Below the pieces are notes generated by a model, which was not told where the DNA came from, made no database searches, and was given only the letters and a program-made list of their open reading frames with translations. Positions 2,118 through 11,022 of a stretch of 34,544 nt of DNA are shown one piece after another. The position numbers were made by a program, and so were the translations under genes. Source of the stretch: an uncultured Planctomycetaceae bacterium (GTDB lineage: Bacteria; Planctomycetota; Phycisphaerae; SM23-33); the NCBI GenBank assembly GCA_964575155.1, contig CAZNSB010000001.1:1-34544 (forward strand), written 5' to 3'. How positions within the stretch are numbered: the first letter of the stretch is position 1; each line of letters starts with the position of its first letter.

Positions 2118-2804
2118 CCGCAGGGCCACGCCACAACGCCTTGCTTCTTTGTAGCGACAACCGCGACAACAGAATGCTCAACTTGCGCGGAGTCATCTCA
2201 GGCCCTCTCCCGGTCGGTAACGGCTTGCAGGGGGTTTCTCGATTCGCACAGACAGCGGGCTGGGGAGGCACCGCTCGGCCCTACGGAACCCACGCGGGAA
2301 GCATCCGAGGACCTGATTCTCATAACGGTTGGCACATAATCCAGGGGCAGCTCACTCGTGAACGATGGGGGCTAGACGCTGCGAGGCAGCTATGTCTTGG
2401 CCTCGCGCTCCGAGACGTTGAGCTTCAGTTCGCCGAAACGGTCTTCGTACTTTTTCAGCAATCGCCCCAAGGTTAATGGGGCCAACGTCATCTACGACAT
2501 CGGGCCGGCAGATCCGACGGCAACCCAGCCGGCGCGTCCGGCTCGGAAGGGGGGAGTTCCGGCCACCCGGCCGGGAACCTCGAGAAACGCACACCGGTAA
2601 TGCTCTGCGCGCCCGGGGGGCAGTCCGGTCTGGCACTTCAACGGCGTGGAGCGGGCGCGATCGCCGATGATCGGGCCACGCCCGGGCGGATCTGCAAAGG
2701 TGTCTGCCCGGGCGCCACCGCCGGGGGACCGGCGTCGTATAACAGTTAGCGGGGGCGGTACGGACACGCTCCAGGGGGCGGGCCGATCGGCGGGGCACGG
2801 CCGG

Positions 2805-2827
2805 CGGCCTCGTGCGAGGCCGTTTTT
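2805..2827 (+). terminator. Intrinsic-terminator-like hairpin plus T5 tract, 86 nt upstream of the GTPase gene start
   Basis: cGGCCTCgtgcGAGGCCg forms a 7-8 bp GC-rich stem followed by ttttt (2823-2827). The T tract exists only on the plus strand. Confidence 0.5.
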
Positions 2828-2912
2828 GAGGGCCAACAGCGTTGCGGGCGGCGAGGGCACGTGTTATTGTCAGCGCGAATCTGCCTCGACAGCCAGGGGA
2901 AAGGACGACGAG

Positions 2913-4232
2913 ATGACGACCGTCTCGGGCAAAGTGCATTACGGGAAGCACTTGGTCCGCAAGATCACGTGCCCGAACTGCTGGCACTCCTTCCCGCCGG
3001 AGGACGTCCTGTTCATCGCCAAGCACACCGACCTGGTGGGCGATCCCATCGCCGGCGGGAACGAGTACCTCCGGTTCATGCCCGTCCGGTTCAACCTCGA
3101 GGGCGAGGCGCTGGACCCCCGCGGGGTGCCGACGTCGGATTTGGCCTGTCCGCGCTGCCACCTGGAGCTGCCGGACCAGATGCTCGAGGTCTCCCCGCTG
3201 TTCATCTCGCTGGTGGGCTCCCCCGCCAGCGGGAAGTCGTATTTCCTGACGGCCCTGGTGGACGGGCTGCGGTCCCTGATGCCGCGGGCGTTCCTTCAAT
3301 TCACCGACGCCGACACCGGGGCCAACAGCCCCATCCTCGAATACGAGAAGACCCTCTTCCACAGCTCCAGCCCGGAGGAGGTGACGGAGATCCGCAAGAC
3401 CCAGGCGGACGACCCGGACCTGCACCAGACCGCCCTGATCGGCGACATCCCGGTCCGTTTTCCGGTGCCACTGCAGTTCCAGCTCTGGCCGAACGAGCGG
3501 CACCCGAAGTTCCCTCAGGCGTACCGCATCGGGCGCATCGTGGTGATGTACGACAACGCCGGGGAAGACTTCCACCCGCAGACGGAAAGGGCCTCCTCGG
3601 CGGCGGTCAGGCACCTGGCCAGCTCGCACGTTCTGTTCGTGATGTTCGATCCCACGCAGGACACCACCTTCCGCGCCCAGTGCCACAGCGACGACCCCCA
3701 GCTCAAGCACGGGTTCCGCCCCGGGGCCGAGGCGACGCCGCTGCTCCGTCAGGAGAGCATACTGAATGAGGCCGCCAGGCGCATCCGGCGATACCACGGC
3801 GCCTCCCAGAGCACCCGCCTGAAGAAGCCGCTGATCGTGGTCGTCCCCAAATTCGACATCTGGGAAGACCTCCCGGGCCTGTCCCTGCAAGAAGAGCCGT
3901 ACGTCGACTCCGAGAACAACGGCCCGGCCAAGATGAACCTGGAGCGGGTCGAGCAGGTCAGCGAGTCGATCCGCGAGCTGTTCTGCCGGCTGTGCCCCGA
4001 CTTTGTGGCCACGGCCGAGGGCCTGAGCGAGTTCATCCGGTACGTCCCCGTCAGCAGTCTTGGAAGGAGCCCCGAGTACGTCGTGCGGGAAGACCGAAGC
4101 TTCTACGGCATCCGGCCGAAGGACATCAAGCCGAGGTGGGTGACGGTGCCCCTGGCGTACTGCCTGTGCAAATGGGCGACCGGACTGATCGGGTGGGCCG
4201 ACGCCCCCCGGCCGCCCGGGAGGTCCGAATGA
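2913..4232 (+). CDS. Zinc-ribbon-fused P-loop GTPase (TRAFAC-like; possibly of the 'double-GTPase' type found in GTPase-centric conflict systems)
   Basis: ATG 2913 is preceded by GGGGAAAGGA with a 7-nt spacer, and the upstream part of the track ORF is R/P/G junk. The protein is 439 aa. Zinc-ribbon cysteines are C20-x2-C23 ... C79-x2-C82. G1/Walker A is GSPASGKS (nt 3216-3239), G3 is hhhh-DNAG (VVMYDNAGE, nt 3552-3563) and the G4-like motif is VVVPKFD (nt 3846-3857). Confidence 0.85.
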   Translation: MTTVSGKVHYGKHLVRKITCPNCWHSFPPEDVLFIAKHTDLVGDPIAGGNEYLRFMPVRFNLEGEALDPRGVPTSDLACPRCHLELPDQMLEVSPLFISLVGSPASGKSYFLTALVDGLRSLMPRAFLQFTDADTGANSPILEYEKTLFHSSSPEEVTEIRKTQADDPDLHQTALIGDIPVRFPVPLQFQLWPNERHPKFPQAYRIGRIVVMYDNAGEDFHPQTERASSAAVRHLASSHVLFVMFDPTQDTTFRAQCHSDDPQLKHGFRPGAEATPLLRQESILNEAARRIRRYHGASQSTRLKKPLIVVVPKFDIWEDLPGLSLQEEPYVDSENNGPAKMNLERVEQVSESIRELFCRLCPDFVATAEGLSEFIRYVPVSSLGRSPEYVVREDRSFYGIRPKDIKPRWVTVPLAYCLCKWATGLIGWADAPRPPGRSE

Positions 4233-6973
4233 GCCTCGAACTGATTTACACGTCGGCGCCGCGGGGCCTCCGGCCGAACACCAGCGGCTTCTGCACGGTG
4301 GCGGCCACCACCGGCATGCCCAAGCACGCCTTCGAGAAGCTGGAGATGCTCAGCGGGTACGAGTTCTGCTACAACATCTCGGACGCCCGCGCCGACCAGA
4401 ACCCCGTCAACTTCATGCACACGCTGATCCTGATCGGCGGCGCCGGGCGTCACGTGCTGTCCAGGATCGCCTATTCCGGGGCAGACCACACCGCCCGCAC
4501 CAACAAGATCGCCCACCACTTCCTGCTGGAAGAGCCCGAGATGGCGGCGGCGGGGCCGGCGTGGATGCTCTCTCGGCTGTCGGCGGAGTCTTTCCGGAGG
4601 AAATGGGACGAACCCGCGGCCGAGCTCCCGCAGAGGTCCTTTGCCGACGCGCCGGGCGGCGCCCAGCCAGCCGACCCCGCCCCGGCCAAGGCCTGGCAGG
4701 AACGCACCGGCGACGCCGGCTGGGCCGGTGAGCTGGCCAGGGCCTTTCGCGAAGACAAAAAGGTCCCCGCCTACGTCATCTACAAGCCGGGGACCGACCT
4801 CCTGCCCCTCTTCCAGGAAAGCCTGGCCCTCCTGCCGGCCGAGGAGAGATGGTCCGTCTGCTTTGCCACCTACTACACCGCCCTGCCGACGGGCTGCCGG
4901 TGCCACTGGCGCGGGGTGGTGGCGGGCTCGAAGGCGGCCGGGGAGGCCGGACGCTTCCCCAGCGCGGTGGTGATCGACCTGACCCGCGCGGCGGGTCCGG
5001 CGCCGGAGAACGAGTTCACGGCGGCGGCCCGGCGGGGCGAGGCGGTCGCGCCGCTGGCGAAGGCGCCCGCCGCCCGGGCCGCCAGGCCCGAGCCGAGGAG
5101 AAGGGAAAGGGCCTTCGAAGCCGCCGTCGCCGAGGCCGTGGCTGCGGCCCCGGCCGAGGCGGGCCGGGGCGGGGCGCCCCGGCCCGCCGGCTACCCGGCC
5201 GGAGCGGCGCCGGCGGGATGGGGGCAAAGGTCTTCGCGGCTTCGCCGGCTGGTCATCGCCCTGGGCGCGTTGGCGGCGATCCTGGCGCTGGCCAACGCGT
5301 GGACGTTTTCCGGCCTCATGTCCGCGCGAGAGGACGCCGACGGGCTCCGGCGGAAGCAGACCGAACTTCAGGTCGAGCTGGCGCGGGCGCGGGTAAAGGC
5401 CGAGGACGCCGAGGAAAGTGTGCGGGCGCTGCGAGCGACCATCGCCGAGCTGAGGGGCAGCAAGCCCGGCCCGGAGCCCCCGAAGCCCCCGGTTGTGAGA
5501 GATCCGGTCCCCGAGCCCCCGAAGCCCCCGGTCGTGCCCCGGCCCGGCCCGAAGCCGCCGAAGCCCCCCAAGCCGACCCCGCCGACGCCGCCGGCTGTAA
5601 CGAGACTGAAGCTCAAGCCGCCGATGCCCCGGCGGGACCGGAAGGTCCGCGACTTCCAGCGCCGGCCCGTGGCCCCGACGTCCGTTAAGAGAAACCAGAT
5701 CGTCTTCGACATCGGCAAGGCCGACACCTTCCTGGATATGCCCGGCGTGCTGACCTCCAGCCGCGCTTTCACCTCGGAACGCGGGCGCGAGAACATGACC
5801 ATCAAGTGCCGCAGCGCCAGCGGGCTTTCCAAGAAGGTCCTCGAGTACTGGATCGAGGACGTCGGCGGCGCGCACCGGCTCATGCTGGAAATCCCCGAGG
5901 ACGCGGGGGGGGCCGGCGACTACACCAAGACGCTCGAATCGCTCGTCATCGAGGTGGTCGAGGAGGGCAACCGGGTAATCTACCAGTGTTCGCGGCGCCA
6001 GCCCCCCGCCCCCGAGACGATCGTCCTCGGGTTCAAGCCGGACGGGACCCCGATCGTCCCCGCCCGGAAAAGCTACAGCTACCTCTGGGCGAGCGTCCTG
6101 GAGATCGTCGACGCCGAGGACGAGCTCCTCAAGCGCAGAAAGGACCGCGCCGGGACCGCCCTGCCCGTGCTGGAGCTTGATCCCCCCGTCCAGGGCTTCG
6201 CCAAGCCGGTGTACACCTTCGAGTTCGACCGGCCCGAGCAGGGCCCGAAGTGGTCCATCCGGGTCAGCACGAACGCGACCGGCGAGATCGTCAACGAGGT
6301 CAAGAAAAGGGACCAGGCCCTGGCCGACCAAAACGGAAAGCTGGCCCCCCTGCTCCAGAAAAGGAAGGAACTCGGCGCCAAGAAGGGCCAACTGGCCAAG
6401 GTCGAGCAGGAAATGAAGATTCAAGAGAAGCTCGTGACTGATGTAGACAAGAAGACGGCGGCCCTCAAAGACAGCGCCAAGAAGCTTCGTGCCCAGAGCA
6501 CTTCGCTGACTGCGTCGATAAACAAGCTCGTAGACCAGAGAGACAAGATCGACACGCAGCTCAAGAAGAGAAATGCCGACAAGAAGAAGCTGCAAGCCGA
6601 AAAGACCAGGCCCAATGGCCAGATCCAAAAGAAGACCACCGAGCGAGACAAGTTGGACAAGGCCCTCAAGGCCGAGCAGCAACAGATCAAGCAGGCCGAG
6701 GCGGAGAAGAAGAGACTCCTGGGCCTGCCCGAGCTGAGAAGAACATTGCCGGCCGATATTCAGAAGCTGGAGAAGCAGATCGAGAAGCTGCCGGCGCAGC
6801 AGCAGGCCGTCAAGAAAGCGGGGGCCAGGCTCAACGAAATGACGAATATCATGAAGAAGCTGTCCGCCCAGGCGGGTCTCGTGAAGGTCATTGACCCGTG
6901 GGACGTGCCGGTGGCGACGTTCGAGTTGAGGTTCCAGCCGGCGGGCCTGAAGGAGATCCTGGCGAAGAACTAG
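4229..6973 (+). CDS. Bitopic membrane protein with a GAP1-N-like (GTPase-associated protein 1) N-terminal domain, a TM helix, a coiled coil, a Pro-rich spacer, a beta-rich domain and a K/E/Q-rich coiled coil
   Basis: The ATG at 4229 overlaps the stop of the GTPase gene (ATGA, 4229-4232). The protein is 914 aa. The N-terminus MSLELIYTSAPRGLRPNTSGFCTVAATTGMP matches, from memory, the h-x-YTS...GL...sGF..vA.s.G signature of GAP1-N2-type proteins. The TM helix is LVIALGALAAILALANAWTFSGL (nt 5249-5317), preceded by RSSRLRR, which implies N-in topology. The Pro-rich spacer is PEPPKPPVV x2 plus PKPPKPPKPTPPTPP. A heptad-rich region covers the last 225 codons. Stop TAG at 6971-6973. Confidence 0.85.
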   Translation: MSLELIYTSAPRGLRPNTSGFCTVAATTGMPKHAFEKLEMLSGYEFCYNISDARADQNPVNFMHTLILIGGAGRHVLSRIAYSGADHTARTNKIAHHFLLEEPEMAAAGPAWMLSRLSAESFRRKWDEPAAELPQRSFADAPGGAQPADPAPAKAWQERTGDAGWAGELARAFREDKKVPAYVIYKPGTDLLPLFQESLALLPAEERWSVCFATYYTALPTGCRCHWRGVVAGSKAAGEAGRFPSAVVIDLTRAAGPAPENEFTAAARRGEAVAPLAKAPAARAARPEPRRRERAFEAAVAEAVAAAPAEAGRGGAPRPAGYPAGAAPAGWGQRSSRLRRLVIALGALAAILALANAWTFSGLMSAREDADGLRRKQTELQVELARARVKAEDAEESVRALRATIAELRGSKPGPEPPKPPVVRDPVPEPPKPPVVPRPGPKPPKPPKPTPPTPPAVTRLKLKPPMPRRDRKVRDFQRRPVAPTSVKRNQIVFDIGKADTFLDMPGVLTSSRAFTSERGRENMTIKCRSASGLSKKVLEYWIEDVGGAHRLMLEIPEDAGGAGDYTKTLESLVIEVVEEGNRVIYQCSRRQPPAPETIVLGFKPDGTPIVPARKSYSYLWASVLEIVDAEDELLKRRKDRAGTALPVLELDPPVQGFAKPVYTFEFDRPEQGPKWSIRVSTNATGEIVNEVKKRDQALADQNGKLAPLLQKRKELGAKKGQLAKVEQEMKIQEKLVTDVDKKTAALKDSAKKLRAQSTSLTASINKLVDQRDKIDTQLKKRNADKKKLQAEKTRPNGQIQKKTTERDKLDKALKAEQQQIKQAEAEKKRLLGLPELRRTLPADIQKLEKQIEKLPAQQQAVKKAGARLNEMTNIMKKLSAQAGLVKVIDPWDVPVATFELRFQPAGLKEILAKN
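5474..5532 (+). repeat. Tandem 39-nt period repeat (20-nt identical core gagcccccgaagcccccggt x2) encoding PEPPKPPVV within a Pro/Lys-rich spacer
   Basis: Identical 20-mers at 5474-5493 and 5513-5532, followed by ccgaagccgccgaagccccccaagccg (PKPPKPPKP). Confidence 0.8.
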
Positions 6974-7077
6974 TGCTCTGTCAAGCATCATTTTGCTGGT
7001 GGCACAGGTTTGTAACCTGTGCGAGACAAACAGGTTGAAAACCTGTTCCACCCACAGATTCAACCTTGACAGAGCAC
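6973..7077. mobile_element. 105-bp MITE-like non-autonomous element with 13-bp perfect terminal inverted repeats, flanked by a TA duplication in a CTAG target (IS630/Tc1-mariner style)
   Basis: The left TIR is gtgctctgtcaag (6973-6985) and the right TIR is cttgacagagcac (7065-7077). Flanking TA dinucleotides at 6971-6972 and 7078-7079 sit inside C-TA...TA-G. The interior is about 47% G+C by my count, against a much more GC-rich background. It contains two related perfect hairpins: GCACAGGTT-tgt-AACCTGTGC (7002-7022) and AACAGGTT-gaa-AACCTGTT (7029-7047). Each TIR carries an outward-facing TTGACA. Confidence 0.7.
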
Positions 7078-7114
7078 TAGCCGGGGGGTGAGACTTCCGG
7101 CGGAGGCCGGGGCG

Positions 7115-10100
7115 ATGATGCCAACTGCAGAGGCGGTCGAAGAGATACAGTCGTTCCTTTACGGCGAGGCCCAGTTGGACGGCAGCCGGCTGCTCTCGCT
7201 GGCGCGCGCCTACGCCGAGGCCTGCACCCGGGTCAACAAGAAGGCCCTCCAGTGCCGAGACCTGCTCCACAAGGGGCTGCGGAACGAGGCCATCTGCGTC
7301 GCCAAGGAGGAGTACGACCTCAAGGAGGAATTCCAACTGGTCAGCTTCGACGAGAACGACGCCTGGTTCAGCGTCTGCGAGAAGGAGGGCCTCCCGATCC
7401 CCGACCTGATCGACTCGGACCTGGTCACCACCGTGGTCGAGGAGATCTACACGGGGCAGGGGAACATCGACCGGCTGCTTCGGGTGTACCGGCTGATGTC
7501 GCTGGCCCGGGCGCCGGTGGTGGACCTGATTCGGGTGCTTCGGCTGATCGCCAAGGAGGACCCTCGGCAGAGGTTCTGGCGGCAGGACGTGCGGACGTTC
7601 GAGAAGGCTCGGCTGGACGAGCTGCACGGCCTGGCCGACGAGGCCGCCGAAAAAGGCGATCGGTCGGCCCTGGAGGACATCGTGGCGGAGCTGACCGGCA
7701 AGGAGTGGCTGGAGCGACCGCCGGAGAGGCTCATCAGGTCGGCCCAGAAGAGCCTGCTCCCGCACCGCCGGGAGGCGGCCCAGGCGCGCTTCGGGCAGCT
7801 TCTCGAGGAGATTCGCCAGGCCCACAGCGCCCTGGACGAGCCCGCCTGCCGAGAGGCCGTCGCCACATGGCACGCCACCATCGACCAAACCCGCATCCAG
7901 CCCGACGCCGCAGACGCCGACCAGGTCGCCCAGGTCGAGGAATGGCTCCGGTCCCTGGAAGCCGCCAGGCAGGCCGAGGCCGAGTTCCAGCAGGCCTGCG
8001 ACACCCTCGATGCCGCCCTCAACGACCGAAAAGACCGCGCCGTCGTCGAGAAGGAGCTCGCCCAGGTCCGCCGGTTCGGGCAGGGGATGCCCTCCTGGCT
8101 GAAGGACAGGGCGGAGGGCTACCTGGCCGAGCTGCGGCGGCGCGCCAGGGTGAAGGGCACGTTCATCCTCGTCGGCACCGTCGCGGGGGTCCTGCTGGCG
8201 GGGGGGGCGGTGTGGCTGGCCGTCCTGCGCCACCGGGCCGGCGAAGAGCAAAGGAGCTGGGTGAACCAGATCACCGCCTGCCTGAACAAGAAGGACCTCG
8301 CCGGCGCCGAGAAGCTGCTGAAGGACCTGGAGAGGAAGGACCCGGGCTTCCATGGCTCGGCGGAGATCGGCGCCCTGCGGGTCCGGCTGGCCGGGGAGGT
8401 GGAACAGGTGGAGTTGGCGGCGAAGCGCGAGAGGGAGCGCAAGGAGCATTTCGCCAAGGCCATGGCCCTGGCCAGGTCGGCCGGGGTGACCCACCCGGAT
8501 CGCCAGGCCCTGGCCACCGCCAAGGGGCTGGCCAGGACGCCGGAAGAGAAGGGCCAGGTCACCGACCTCGAGCAGCGCATCGCGGAGGCACGCCGCGTCA
8601 GCACCGAGGAAAGGAAGGCGCAGATTGCCGCCACCGTGGCGAAGGCGCAGGTCGGGATCGGAGCACTCACCAGCGCCCTCGACCCCGTCAGGGAGCCCGA
8701 CCTCGAAAGCGTCGAGAAGCTCGCCAAACGATGCACCAGCTTCCTGGACCTTCTGGACGGGCTCCCAAAGAAAAACCCCCTCTCCGGGTCGATCTCCCGC
8801 CAGCGCGTGGCCAAGGCCCAGGAGGTCATCGACGAGGCCGTGAAGAAGGCCAAGGCCCCGAACCCGGCGCGTTTCGAGAACCTCGAAGCCCCCGCCGGGG
8901 CGTGCGCCGAGCTGTGCCGGCTGCTGGCGGCAAGCAAGGAACTCTCGAAAGAGCAGCAGGCCCTCCTGGCCGGTGCCGCCGACGCCGCCGACAAGGCCTT
9001 GAAGGCCGCCAAGGCCAGGTTCGAAACGGACCGGAAAATGGCCGCCGACTGGAAGGGGATTTCGAGGCTGTACGCCCGGCCGGAGGAGCTGGGCACTGCG
9101 CTCGTCGCGTTCGCCAGCACCTACCCGAATCACGCGTTTGCCAAGGACCTGGCGGCGGCCGCCACCATGACGACACAGTGCCGGTCGATGGGAGTATGGG
9201 AAGGCCTGGTCAAGCCGTGGCGCGCGGCCCCGCCCGTTTCCGACGCCCAGGAGGCCGAACGACGGCACACCGCCCTCGACCAGTTCCGCAAGGATCACGG
9301 CTCCGGGCCGTGGGAGGACGCCGCCAAGAGATACGCCGAGTACCTCCGGGCCGCGGTCGACACCTTGCCGAAGGACCGCCTCCCCGCCCAGCTTGCCGAC
9401 ATCCAACAGTTCCTGAACGACGACCTGATCGCCGCCTCGTCCATGTTCGTCACCAGGACGGGCAGTCGGTACTACTTGCTGAAAAACGCCGCCAAGGAGA
9501 TCAAGCTCAACGCCAGGGTGGTCGGGTGGAGGATCGATTACGTGGTCGACAGCCGATTGACCACGAAGCCGGAATCGCTGAGAATGGATGCCCTGGCCCT
9601 AATTTGCGCGCAGGGGCCGATCCCGGCGCCCCAGAATGCGCTTTCCAAGAGCATCCGGCAGGAGATCGGGCGGTTCGACGGGCCGGGATGGGAAACCCTC
9701 TGCCTGCGACTTGCCGACCTGGCACTACAGGACACGACCGTGGACCCGATCCTGCGGGCCGGCATCCTCAAGAGCCTGCTCGAAAGCGCCGCCCAGTTCA
9801 CGCCCCACCAAGCCGAGCCGATCAAGAAGACTGCGGACCGGTTTGAGAACCTCCCGCTGGAGGTGTACTGGATGGACCCGAAGGACGAGGACGCGAACAA
9901 GGCCCGCGGTCAGGTGGCCCGCTCGCTGGAGGAGATCGACCGAAAGACGCTCACCAGGATGATCCAGGACGTCCACGGCGGGCTCGACGGGCTCTTTCCC
10001 GCCCCCAGCCGGTGCGCCGGGATCATCTTCCCCCGCCGCGGGGAAGTGGTCCTCCACAAGGACCTCCGGGACGCCGACCTCTACGTCATCTCGGGCGAGA

Positions 10101-10243
10101 GCGGCAAGACGCCCGCCATGGTGAAAGTCGGCTTCGTGGCAGGAGGCAAGTTCGCGTCAGCCGGCCCGGCCGGCGGATACCCCGTCGGAAGCTGCCTCTT
10201 CGCCAGGGCCAGACACCCCGCTGGCTCAAGAAAAAGCCCTTAG
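7115..10243 (+). CDS. Large orphan bitopic membrane protein (1042 aa) with an alpha-helical cytoplasmic N-domain, one TM helix and a C-terminal region of about 670 aa predicted to be extracytoplasmic
   Basis: ATG-ATG at 7115/7118 follows GGAGG (7102-7106, 8-nt spacer); the track ORF begins at GTG 7088. The TM helix is GTFILVGTVAGVLLAGGAVWLAVL (about nt 8159-8230), preceded by RRRARVK. GC3 is consistently high. Stop TAG at 10241-10243. I recognise no family. Confidence 0.8.
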   Translation: MMPTAEAVEEIQSFLYGEAQLDGSRLLSLARAYAEACTRVNKKALQCRDLLHKGLRNEAICVAKEEYDLKEEFQLVSFDENDAWFSVCEKEGLPIPDLIDSDLVTTVVEEIYTGQGNIDRLLRVYRLMSLARAPVVDLIRVLRLIAKEDPRQRFWRQDVRTFEKARLDELHGLADEAAEKGDRSALEDIVAELTGKEWLERPPERLIRSAQKSLLPHRREAAQARFGQLLEEIRQAHSALDEPACREAVATWHATIDQTRIQPDAADADQVAQVEEWLRSLEAARQAEAEFQQACDTLDAALNDRKDRAVVEKELAQVRRFGQGMPSWLKDRAEGYLAELRRRARVKGTFILVGTVAGVLLAGGAVWLAVLRHRAGEEQRSWVNQITACLNKKDLAGAEKLLKDLERKDPGFHGSAEIGALRVRLAGEVEQVELAAKRERERKEHFAKAMALARSAGVTHPDRQALATAKGLARTPEEKGQVTDLEQRIAEARRVSTEERKAQIAATVAKAQVGIGALTSALDPVREPDLESVEKLAKRCTSFLDLLDGLPKKNPLSGSISRQRVAKAQEVIDEAVKKAKAPNPARFENLEAPAGACAELCRLLAASKELSKEQQALLAGAADAADKALKAAKARFETDRKMAADWKGISRLYARPEELGTALVAFASTYPNHAFAKDLAAAATMTTQCRSMGVWEGLVKPWRAAPPVSDAQEAERRHTALDQFRKDHGSGPWEDAAKRYAEYLRAAVDTLPKDRLPAQLADIQQFLNDDLIAASSMFVTRTGSRYYLLKNAAKEIKLNARVVGWRIDYVVDSRLTTKPESLRMDALALICAQGPIPAPQNALSKSIRQEIGRFDGPGWETLCLRLADLALQDTTVDPILRAGILKSLLESAAQFTPHQAEPIKKTADRFENLPLEVYWMDPKDEDANKARGQVARSLEEIDRKTLTRMIQDVHGGLDGLFPAPSRCAGIIFPRRGEVVLHKDLRDADLYVISGESGKTPAMVKVGFVAGGKFASAGPAGGYPVGSCLFARARHPAGSRKSP

Positions 10244-10252: not shown

Positions 10253-11022
10253 CCGGACAGGAGCGTCCTCTTTGCCGCCTCGGCGGCGACGCTCGGACGC
10301 AAGGCGCCCGGAGAATACAGGTCGATCCCGCCGGCGCGGAGGTGCCCCGCCAGAGAGATGACCTTCCTGATCGCCTCGGTGCTTCGAGCCGACCCCTTCT
10401 GCGGTGCCTTCTCGGCGCCGGTGCGAGCGCAGAGCGTGCAGGAGATGACGCCGGCGCCCTGGCAGCGCGGGCAGACCACGGCGCCGGAGCCGCCGCAGTC
10501 GTTGCAGGTCGTCCCCTTGAGGGTGCCGACCCCGCGGCAGGTCGAGCACTTGGCGTGGCCCATCCCCCTGCACCTGGGGCAGTCCTCCCGGCCCGTGCCG
10601 AAGCAGCGCGGGCACCGCGCGGGAGGACGCCGGCCGACGCCGCCACGCGCGGAGAACATCTTCTCCAGCGGCGTCAGCAGGACCGAGTTGGCCAGTTCGA
10701 GCACGTAGGCCGATGCCGACGCCCTCTTCAGCTCGCGGGCCGCCAGGGCCCCGTCGCCCTGGAGGTGGGCCCGGAGCCCCTGCCGGAGGCTCTCCAGCGA
10801 CTCCAGCCGGTACCTGCGCTGATCCTTGCGGAGCCTGAGGAGCCTCCGGACGGCGGGGAGGTCCTTGGGGTTGGCCAGGACGGTCTTGCACAGCGATGCA
10901 ATCCGGCGGTCGACCTCGGCCGGCCTGAGGAGCTGCGAGAGGCCCCTCGGCGCCCGCCACAGCAGGGCGCCCACCAGGGCGCACAAGGCGCATGCCCGCG
11001 CGACGGCGGCGAACCGTTTCAT
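10240..11022 (-). CDS. Signal-anchored protein with six DnaJ-type CxxCxGxG zinc-finger repeats
   Basis: ATG at 11022 follows GGGGAAAGGG. The protein is 260 aa. The N-terminal hydrophobic segment is MKRFAAVARACALCALVGALLW. The repeats are CPRCFGTG, CPRCRGMG, CSTCRGVG, CNDCGGSG, CPRCQGAG and CTLCARTG (aa 137-202, nt 10417-10614). Confidence 0.85.
   Translation of the reverse strand: MKRFAAVARACALCALVGALLWRAPRGLSQLLRPAEVDRRIASLCKTVLANPKDLPAVRRLLRLRKDQRRYRLESLESLRQGLRAHLQGDGALAARELKRASASAYVLELANSVLLTPLEKMFSARGGVGRRPPARCPRCFGTGREDCPRCRGMGHAKCSTCRGVGTLKGTTCNDCGGSGAVVCPRCQGAGVISCTLCARTGAEKAPQKGSARSTEAIRKVISLAGHLRAGGIDLYSPGALRPSVAAEAAKRTLLSGKKP

Follow-up and report, generated by a model that had tools for sequence, protein, structure and literature searches.

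Insertion sequences (ISs) of the IS630 family transpose by cutting and pasting, with duplication of a TA dinucleotide, and their transposases contact the element ends via two helix-turn-helix motifs (PMC2170065). The preferred target of IS630 itself, from Shigella sonnei, is the TA within 5'-CTAG-3' (Tenzen and Ohtsubo 1991, as cited in PMC2170065). RUP, a 107-bp miniature inverted-repeat transposable element (MITE) of Streptococcus pneumoniae that derives from IS630-Spn1, is non-coding and multi-copy, has terminal inverted repeats (TIRs) copied from its parent IS and TA at its termini, uses a TA target, is proposed to be mobilised in trans, and yields a transcript that forms a long stem-loop (PMC2229807). 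The Correia elements of Neisseria (NEMIS, CREE) span 105–155 bp, with long TIRs and TA at their termini; they often lie between co-transcribed genes, form a long RNA hairpin, and have been proposed to carry outward promoters in their ends (PMC2229807). The window analysed here, a 34,544-nucleotide stretch of contig CAZNSB010000001.1 from an uncultured Planctomycetaceae bacterium, holds a 105-bp element at the junction between genes B and C of a three-gene operon (A, B and C). This element is very probably a non-autonomous MITE that owes both its origin and its mobilisation in trans to an IS630-family (Tc1/mariner-like DDE) transposase.

The window element works like RUP and resembles the Correia elements in layout, and it belongs to neither, as the sequences are unrelated. 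RUP differs from the window element in TIR sequence, host phylum and parent IS clade, its TIRs are 9 bp long, and no strict CTAG target has been reported for it. Likewise, the Correia elements have no sequence similarity to the window element. Promoter and RNase III functions have been documented or proposed for Correia, whereas such functions are unsupported for the window element; conversely, the Correia transposase is unknown, whereas the parent family of the window element has been identified. Among full-length ISs, the duplicated TA in a CTAG target is shared with IS630, with ISMae29, whose CTAG-flanked right end (CTTGACAGACTAC-TAG) differs from the window TIR at 2 of 13 positions, and with ISPna1, which is also CTAG-flanked and has ends that start with TAGTG. 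In contrast to these three ISs, the window element is 105 bp long and lacks a transposase. A literature search, with ISfinder outside its scope, did not return the TIR sequence (the one match was an unrelated human primer), nor did it return a paper on planctomycete MITEs of this kind.

Structure and insertion site of the element

The TIRs of the window element (Table 1) are perfect across 13 bp, or across 16 bp if the palindromic CTAG present at both junctions is included, and lie 79 nt apart. A TIR of 13 bp is unconvincing by itself because 37 of 100 first-order shuffles of the window contain a perfect inverted repeat of this length. The case for the element rests instead on the CTAG extension and on further evidence: a perfect 16-bp inverted repeat within 200 nt occurs in none of the 100 shuffles. 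The two arms of the element, 51 nt each, are 80% complementary, and the element RNA is predicted to fold into a single long hairpin of −64.3 kcal/mol (shuffle mean −36.6; z = −7.8). The core includes two palindromes (7004–7020 and 7030–7046), neither of which occurs again in the window when up to three mismatches are allowed. The G+C content of the element is 16 points lower than the 64.8% of the surrounding 2 kb. A tblastn search of the window with the family transposase detected no transposase (best E = 0.04, outside the element), and the whole window contains no Rfam family at gathering score and no tRNA. An earlier note on this stretch, made from its letters, had described a 105-bp element with 13-bp TIRs and TA...TA in CTAG, an AT-richer composition (about 47% G+C), two near-identical palindromes, an outward TTGACA at each end, and the absence of a transposase in the window. 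The coordinates and the description are confirmed by the present analysis, with a slightly higher G+C content (Table 1). Elsewhere, a second perfect inverted repeat of 13–14 bp with a short loop lies within gene B at 5158–5188, and its presence is explicable by chance at such a length.

The junctions of the element read GCG AAG AAC TA + GTGCTCTGTCAAG on the left and CTTGACAGAGCAC + TA GCCGGGG on the right, with CTAG at 6970–6973 and at 7077–7080. With a G at its start and a C at its end, the element restores CTAG at both junctions. The TAG stop codon of gene B (6971–6973) is composed of the left TA and the first G of the element, and is preserved because the element starts with this G. Consequently, with CTAG rebuilt, the B protein is unchanged and the ribosome-binding site and start codon of gene C are intact. 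The translation of gene B is identical to the called protein P0001 and has the C-terminus ...LAKN, followed by TAG. Removal of the element and one TA in silico restores AAC TAG CCGGGG (predicted empty junction AACTAGCC) and shortens the B–C spacer from 141 nt to 34 nt, in line with the earlier proposal that such a removal leaves the stop of gene B intact and places the GGAGG-ATG of gene C 34 nt downstream. More generally, MITEs of this type can occupy TAG stop codons harmlessly because CTAG is rebuilt at both ends.

Table 1. Coordinates of the element, its insertion site and the adjoining genes in the window, with those of full-length relatives on their own contigs in the last row.
Feature	Position	Strand	Remarks
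MITE	6973–7077	.	105 bp, non-coding, imperfect palindrome, 48.6% G+C
Left TIR GTGCTCTGTCAAG	6973–6985	+	includes outward TTGACA, − strand, 6984–6979
Left subterminal region	6986–7002	+	GGTGG at its end; inner half of the ~30-bp family end
Internal hairpin 1 CACAGGTT-TGT-AACCTGTG	7003–7021	+	stem reaches G7002/C7022
Internal hairpin 2 AACAGGTT-GAA-AACCTGTT	7029–7047	+	followed by CCACCC, 7048–7053
Right TIR, + strand letters CTTGACAGAGCAC	7065–7077	−	includes outward TTGACA, + strand, 7066–7071
Left target TA copy	6971–6972	.	with C6970 and G6973 forms CTAG
Right target TA copy	7078–7079	.	within CTAG 7077–7080
Gene B, GAP1-N2/GAP1-M protein, 914 aa	4229–6973	+	stop codon within the insertion target
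Gene C, downstream operon partner	7115–10243	+	GGAGG 7102–7106 and ATG 7115 unaltered
Full-length IS630-family elements	L016 167–1397; L022 184–1414; L061 558–1788; L044 168–1396

Related ends, MITEs and full-length insertion sequences

The ends of the window element are shared with a large family. A metagenome scan with the 16-mer CTAGTGCTCTGTCAAG returned at least 120 loci, and the family ends and MITE pairs described here are drawn from the matches listed. Most of these loci show an extended end pattern after the 16-mer and are therefore not chance matches. The consensus of 171 ends is CTAGTGCTCTGTCAAncnTnaatTganGGGT, also written CTAGTGCTCTGTCAAncnTnaatTganGGGTngn (short form CTAGTGCTCTGTCAA-N12-GGGT), in which the distance from the TIR to GGT is fixed at 12 nt. 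The left and right arms of the window element both agree with this consensus. Pairing of hits with an inverted second end identified at least 86 other non-coding, MITE-sized TIR pairs of 61–226 bp (median 129 bp), on host contigs with G+C contents from 0.32 to 0.71. The cores of these elements are mutually unrelated and mostly palindromic themselves; the shared part is the ends. The flanks are cTA...TAg in most of them, including at ends that were unconstrained by the search pattern, indicating that the CTAG target is a family-wide property. A preference of the family for CTAGs that contain stop codons was also considered and was rejected for want of enrichment, as 13.8% of junction TAGs terminate an open frame that is 100 codons long or longer, compared with 10.8% when the remaining frames of these junctions are read and 18.8% at random positions.

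The subterminal type of the window element was used in a genome scan (TAGTGCTCTGTCAA-N13-GGTGG), which returned 71 loci. About 17 of these are in one Phycisphaerales metagenome-assembled genome (MAG) and about 14 in one Chloroflexota MAG, with differing flanks. The remaining hosts include Gemmatales, Pirellulales, Thermoguttaceae, Candidatus Kuenenia, Bacteroidia, Saprospiraceae, Chlamydiales/Parachlamydiales, Leptolyngbyaceae/Nodosilinea, Armatimonadetes and a Parcubacteria MAG. The family as a whole is hosted by MAGs of Planctomycetota, Chloroflexota, Bacteroidota, Chlamydiota and Cyanobacteria, among others, and by metagenomes. A 119-bp element is present on at least nine contigs of the Phycisphaerales MAG CSMAG_1569 with different flanking sequences, a pattern that is indicative of dispersal by transposition. 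No match to the window element was found in plasmids by BLASTN.

The closest relative of the window element is located in a Planctomycetales MAG, CSMAG_1105 (locus L152, position 383 to ~510). This MITE has the same end as the window element and the same GGTGGCACAGGTTTGTAACCTGTGC hairpin in both arms, together with a longer linker and a decayed right TIR. A scan of viral and genome contigs with GTGCTCTGTCAAG-N14-22-ACAGGTT returned nothing, and missed L152 itself, which has CAAC instead of CAAG. Other planctomycete subfamilies (L121–L191) share the order TIR, 12 nt, GGGTGG and a hairpin that starts CAC...GTG, and their hairpin sequences differ (CACGGCCG..., CACAGCCCCC..., CACGCCCTG..., CACAGGTT...). 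The combination of shared ends and differing hairpins suggests that MITEs have been assembled repeatedly and independently on the same ends. Three further arrangements were observed in the family: a minimal TIR-TIR element of ~34 bp that abuts a 167-bp MITE via a common CTAG (L171, 2807–3004), a remnant of ~40 bp that consists of two ends (L011, ~5273–5315), and a MITE (L069, 7908–8004) that has a full-length family IS (8095–9215) ~90 bp away.

Four of the metagenome matches listed (L016, L022, L044 and L061) are full-length elements of 1229–1231 bp that carry the same TIR pair, TAGTGCTCTGTCAAG, with CTAG on almost every flank (Table 1). Their coding sequence is divided between two frames, one for a helix-turn-helix part at the N-terminus and one for a DDE part at the C-terminus, and a −1 shift at 7–8 consecutive A residues (e.g., TTAAAAAAAAC), conserved in all four, connects the two. 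This arrangement implies that the transposase is produced by programmed −1 frameshifting or by transcriptional slippage. The joined transposase matches Pfam DDE_3 (2.6e-23), HTH_32 and HTH_23, and scores 217.8 bits against NCBIfam NF033545, 'IS630 family transposase' (cutoff 100). The nearest proteins on annotated plasmids are also IS630-family transposases, among them a copy on an Isosphaeraceae plasmid (60% identical), ISMae29 (Microcystis) and ISPna1 (Polaromonas). Overall, the transposases with the exact TIR share ~50–60% identity with those of the named ISs and with the copy on the Isosphaeraceae plasmid, from which the −1 shift at A7-8 sets them apart.

The assignment of the element to IS630/Tc1-mariner MITEs, put forward in the earlier note, is therefore borne out by the same TIR and CTAG on at least 86 MITE-sized elements and on 1.23-kb IS630-family ISs. 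The note had treated a lack of related TIRs elsewhere in the genome as an argument against this assignment, and related TIRs are abundant elsewhere, in other genomes and in metagenomes. Many independent MITE families, in at least five phyla among which Planctomycetota are prominent, appear to have been spawned by a single IS630 clade whose 15-bp end is almost invariant and whose CTAG target is strict. Such MITEs can mislead gene callers and predictors of repeats, of clustered regularly interspaced short palindromic repeats (CRISPR) or of small RNAs in MAGs, and cataloguing them would be useful.

The window element has several defining features of an IS630-family MITE: TIRs that match those of an autonomous IS, a TA target in CTAG, a non-coding length of less than 300 bp, and no transposase in cis. 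These features suggest a mechanism that begins with a transposase encoded elsewhere in the host. First, this IS630-family transposase would bind the bipartite ends of ~30 bp (TAGTGCTCTGTCAAG, 12 nt, GGT/GGGT), in which the subterminal GGTGG is probably the second transposase contact. Next, the enzyme would excise a copy of the element and integrate it at the TA of AAC-TAG-CC by cut-and-paste, duplicating the TA. CTAG and the stop codon of gene B would be regenerated upon insertion. Since neither the window nor the 71 GGTGG-type loci contain a transposase, the GGTGG subfamily appears to be mobilised in trans, and the same would apply to the window element.

Several points weigh against this account. 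The 34.5-kb window contains one copy of the element, and further copies in the source organism are hypothetical. No empty site was found in the collections, which hold no close relative of the locus, and the insertion event is deduced from structure. Duplication of TA (2 bp) is indistinguishable from duplication of CTAG (4 bp) in the sequence. In addition, one close subfamily relative was found, L152, which is partly decayed, and none of the 71 genome loci is an autonomous IS with the GGTGG-type subterminal sequence.

Regulatory, REP-like and in-place origins as alternatives

The MITE insertion is real but ordinary mobile DNA, and the neighbouring genes are undamaged. The insertion was probably near-neutral for selection. 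The sole likely local effect is the very stable intercistronic RNA hairpin, which could alter the processing or stability of the B/C mRNA. An alternative view is that the operon now uses the element as a co-opted regulatory module, which would either provide a hybrid promoter for independent transcription of gene C or, through its 50-bp RNA hairpin, form an RNase III or stability site that decouples B and C. Correia/NEMIS elements offer a precedent, as promoters and RNase III regulation of neighbouring transcripts have been proposed for them (PMC2229807), and the window element has both a perfect −35 hexamer directed toward gene C (7066–7071) and a predicted RNA hairpin of −64.3 kcal/mol. However, a consensus scan of positions 6700–7400 gives neither a sigma-70-type promoter nor a terminator. 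To be accepted as a −10 element, a hexamer had to match at four or more of six positions, A2 and T6 included, and to be located in the flank 16–18 nt from the −35 hexamer. No hexamer in the flanks qualifies under this sigma-70 criterion, although promoter rules in planctomycetes are poorly known and a weak promoter is possible. The best candidates, 17–18 nt from TTGACA, are GAGACT on the right and CAGGAT on the left, with three of six matches each. Nor are −10-like hexamers enriched at the 167 family ends, where they number 1, 4 and 0 at spacers of 16–18 nt against a control mean of 2.0. The invariance of TTGACA is explained by its location in the transposase-binding TIR. Similarly, no intrinsic terminator was found within 6700–7400, and the hairpin is followed by CUAGCCGGGGGG, which lacks a U-tract. 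The hybrid promoter for gene C suggested in the earlier note thus finds no support in these tests.

Conservation of the element at the B–C junction of relatives, which the note had taken as a sign of a dedicated regulatory RNA or operator, is likewise not indicated. The spacers that follow GAP1 in two related operons (L192 and L194) are 84 and 124 nt long and of unrelated sequence; this junction precedes an extra gene rather than a counterpart of gene C, and it is not strictly orthologous to the B–C junction. The 141-nt B–C spacer is within the range found for related operons. Taken together, these results make co-option as a regulatory module unlikely.

The internal hairpin of the element has also been traced outside of MITEs. 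The hairpin with a 5' GGTGG is present in 16 stretches of IMG/VR viral contigs, for which fewer than one chance match would be expected, an estimate made with the collection size unstated. An unbiased scan of viral contigs with GCACAGGTTNNNAACCTGTGC also returned 16 stretches, 11 of which are the same loci. The solitary viral form is GTAG-CACAGGTT-nnn-AACCTGTG-CCAC(C) (GTAGCACAGGTTNNNAACCTGTGCCAC), in which the 3-nt loop varies. It has no IS630 ends in these contigs and occurs in up to three copies per contig and in a single orientation. These copies lie mostly between co-directional genes, often 9–37 nt after a stop codon or 12–72 nt before a start codon (L198–L213 and L222–L226 in IMG/VR). 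One such contig, L208, has copies at 2362–2389, 5236–5263 and 10260–10287, and encodes a terminase, a Mu-type portal, a head protease and an endolysin. The MITE hairpin, GGTGG-CACAGGTT-nnn-AACCTGTG, is identical to the phage copies over 25 nt, and the heads of the hairpins in the window and L152 MITEs are CTCG and ACAA, not GTAG. Apparent hairpin-CCACC units outside MITEs in planctomycete genome loci were discarded, as they proved to be either MITE arms with mutated TIRs or a Gly/Thr-coding repeat in L192/L193.

The identity between MITE and phage hairpins raises the idea that the MITE core is more than filler, and that its hairpin is a ready-made signal, acting in cis as RNA or DNA, which an IS630-type MITE spreads through the host genome. 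This idea is improbable. Were it correct, a hairpin signal would have been placed in a GAP1/GTPase conflict operon, 62 nt upstream of its gene C, where it might serve as a processing or stability hairpin, as a site bound by a factor of the host or of a phage, or as a REP-like recombination site. The MITE subfamily might have captured a hairpin that was originally REP-like or a phage regulatory signal.

The same hairpins could also be taken to mean that the element does not derive from a DDE transposon and consists instead of two paired palindromes of REP/BIME type, which a RAYT tyrosine transposase would mobilise. REPs are short, G+C-rich intergenic hairpins; the core of the MITE consists of two inverted copies of a short hairpin, and the solitary phage form is GTAG-headed, intergenic and present in several copies per Mu-like phage contig. 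However, REPs possess neither a TIR pair nor a target duplication, whereas the hairpins of the window element lie inside IS630-type TIRs with a TA/CTAG duplication. Moreover, the hairpins of the window and L152 lack the GTAG head, no solitary hairpin is present elsewhere in the window, no RAYT was seen, and what the at least 86 related elements have in common is the ends and not the core. A REP/BIME-like origin is consequently very improbable. Finally, an inverted repeat that arose by chance, or evolution in place of a dedicated operator or attenuator at the B–C junction, is already refuted, for although shuffles of this G+C-rich window readily produce a perfect 13-bp repeat, they do not produce the 16-bp repeat, and the 51-nt arms, the fold energy, the low G+C content and the same ends with CTAG flanks at at least ~190 unrelated loci all stand against such an origin.

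The A-B-C operon

Genes A (GTPase-like), B (GAP1-N2/GAP1-M) and C occupy positions 2646–10243 of the window and resemble a GTPase-centred 'GAP1' conflict-system operon. The ATG of gene B overlaps the stop codon of gene A (ATGA, 4229–4232). All three genes of the GAP1/GTPase operon are intact, and no special function has to be invoked for the AT-rich palindrome that separates B from C, read as a MITE. The operon is syntenic with operons in L192–L194. In the related operons GAP1 is preceded by an FHA protein, and gene A shares 54% identity with its C-terminal part; the N-terminal 268 residues of gene B are 55% identical to their GAP1; the C-terminal part of gene B weakly resembles a separate gene that follows GAP1 elsewhere. 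Gene C shares 31–34% identity with two genes of L192 and L193, the second and the third downstream of GAP1, and corresponds to two genes fused. An antisense open reading frame of 1767 aa (4103–9406, − strand) passes uninterrupted through the MITE and through both B and C; it was dismissed as a high-G+C artefact because it overlaps two Pfam- or homology-supported genes on the opposite strand. The best database match of gene B has 38% identity, its cluster comprises a single member, and a look-up of the exact protein returned no record. Elsewhere in the window, the best IspH match is 83% identical, and the named relatives of the window proteins belong to Planctomycetota, Phycisphaerae, Thermoguttaceae and Isosphaeraceae.

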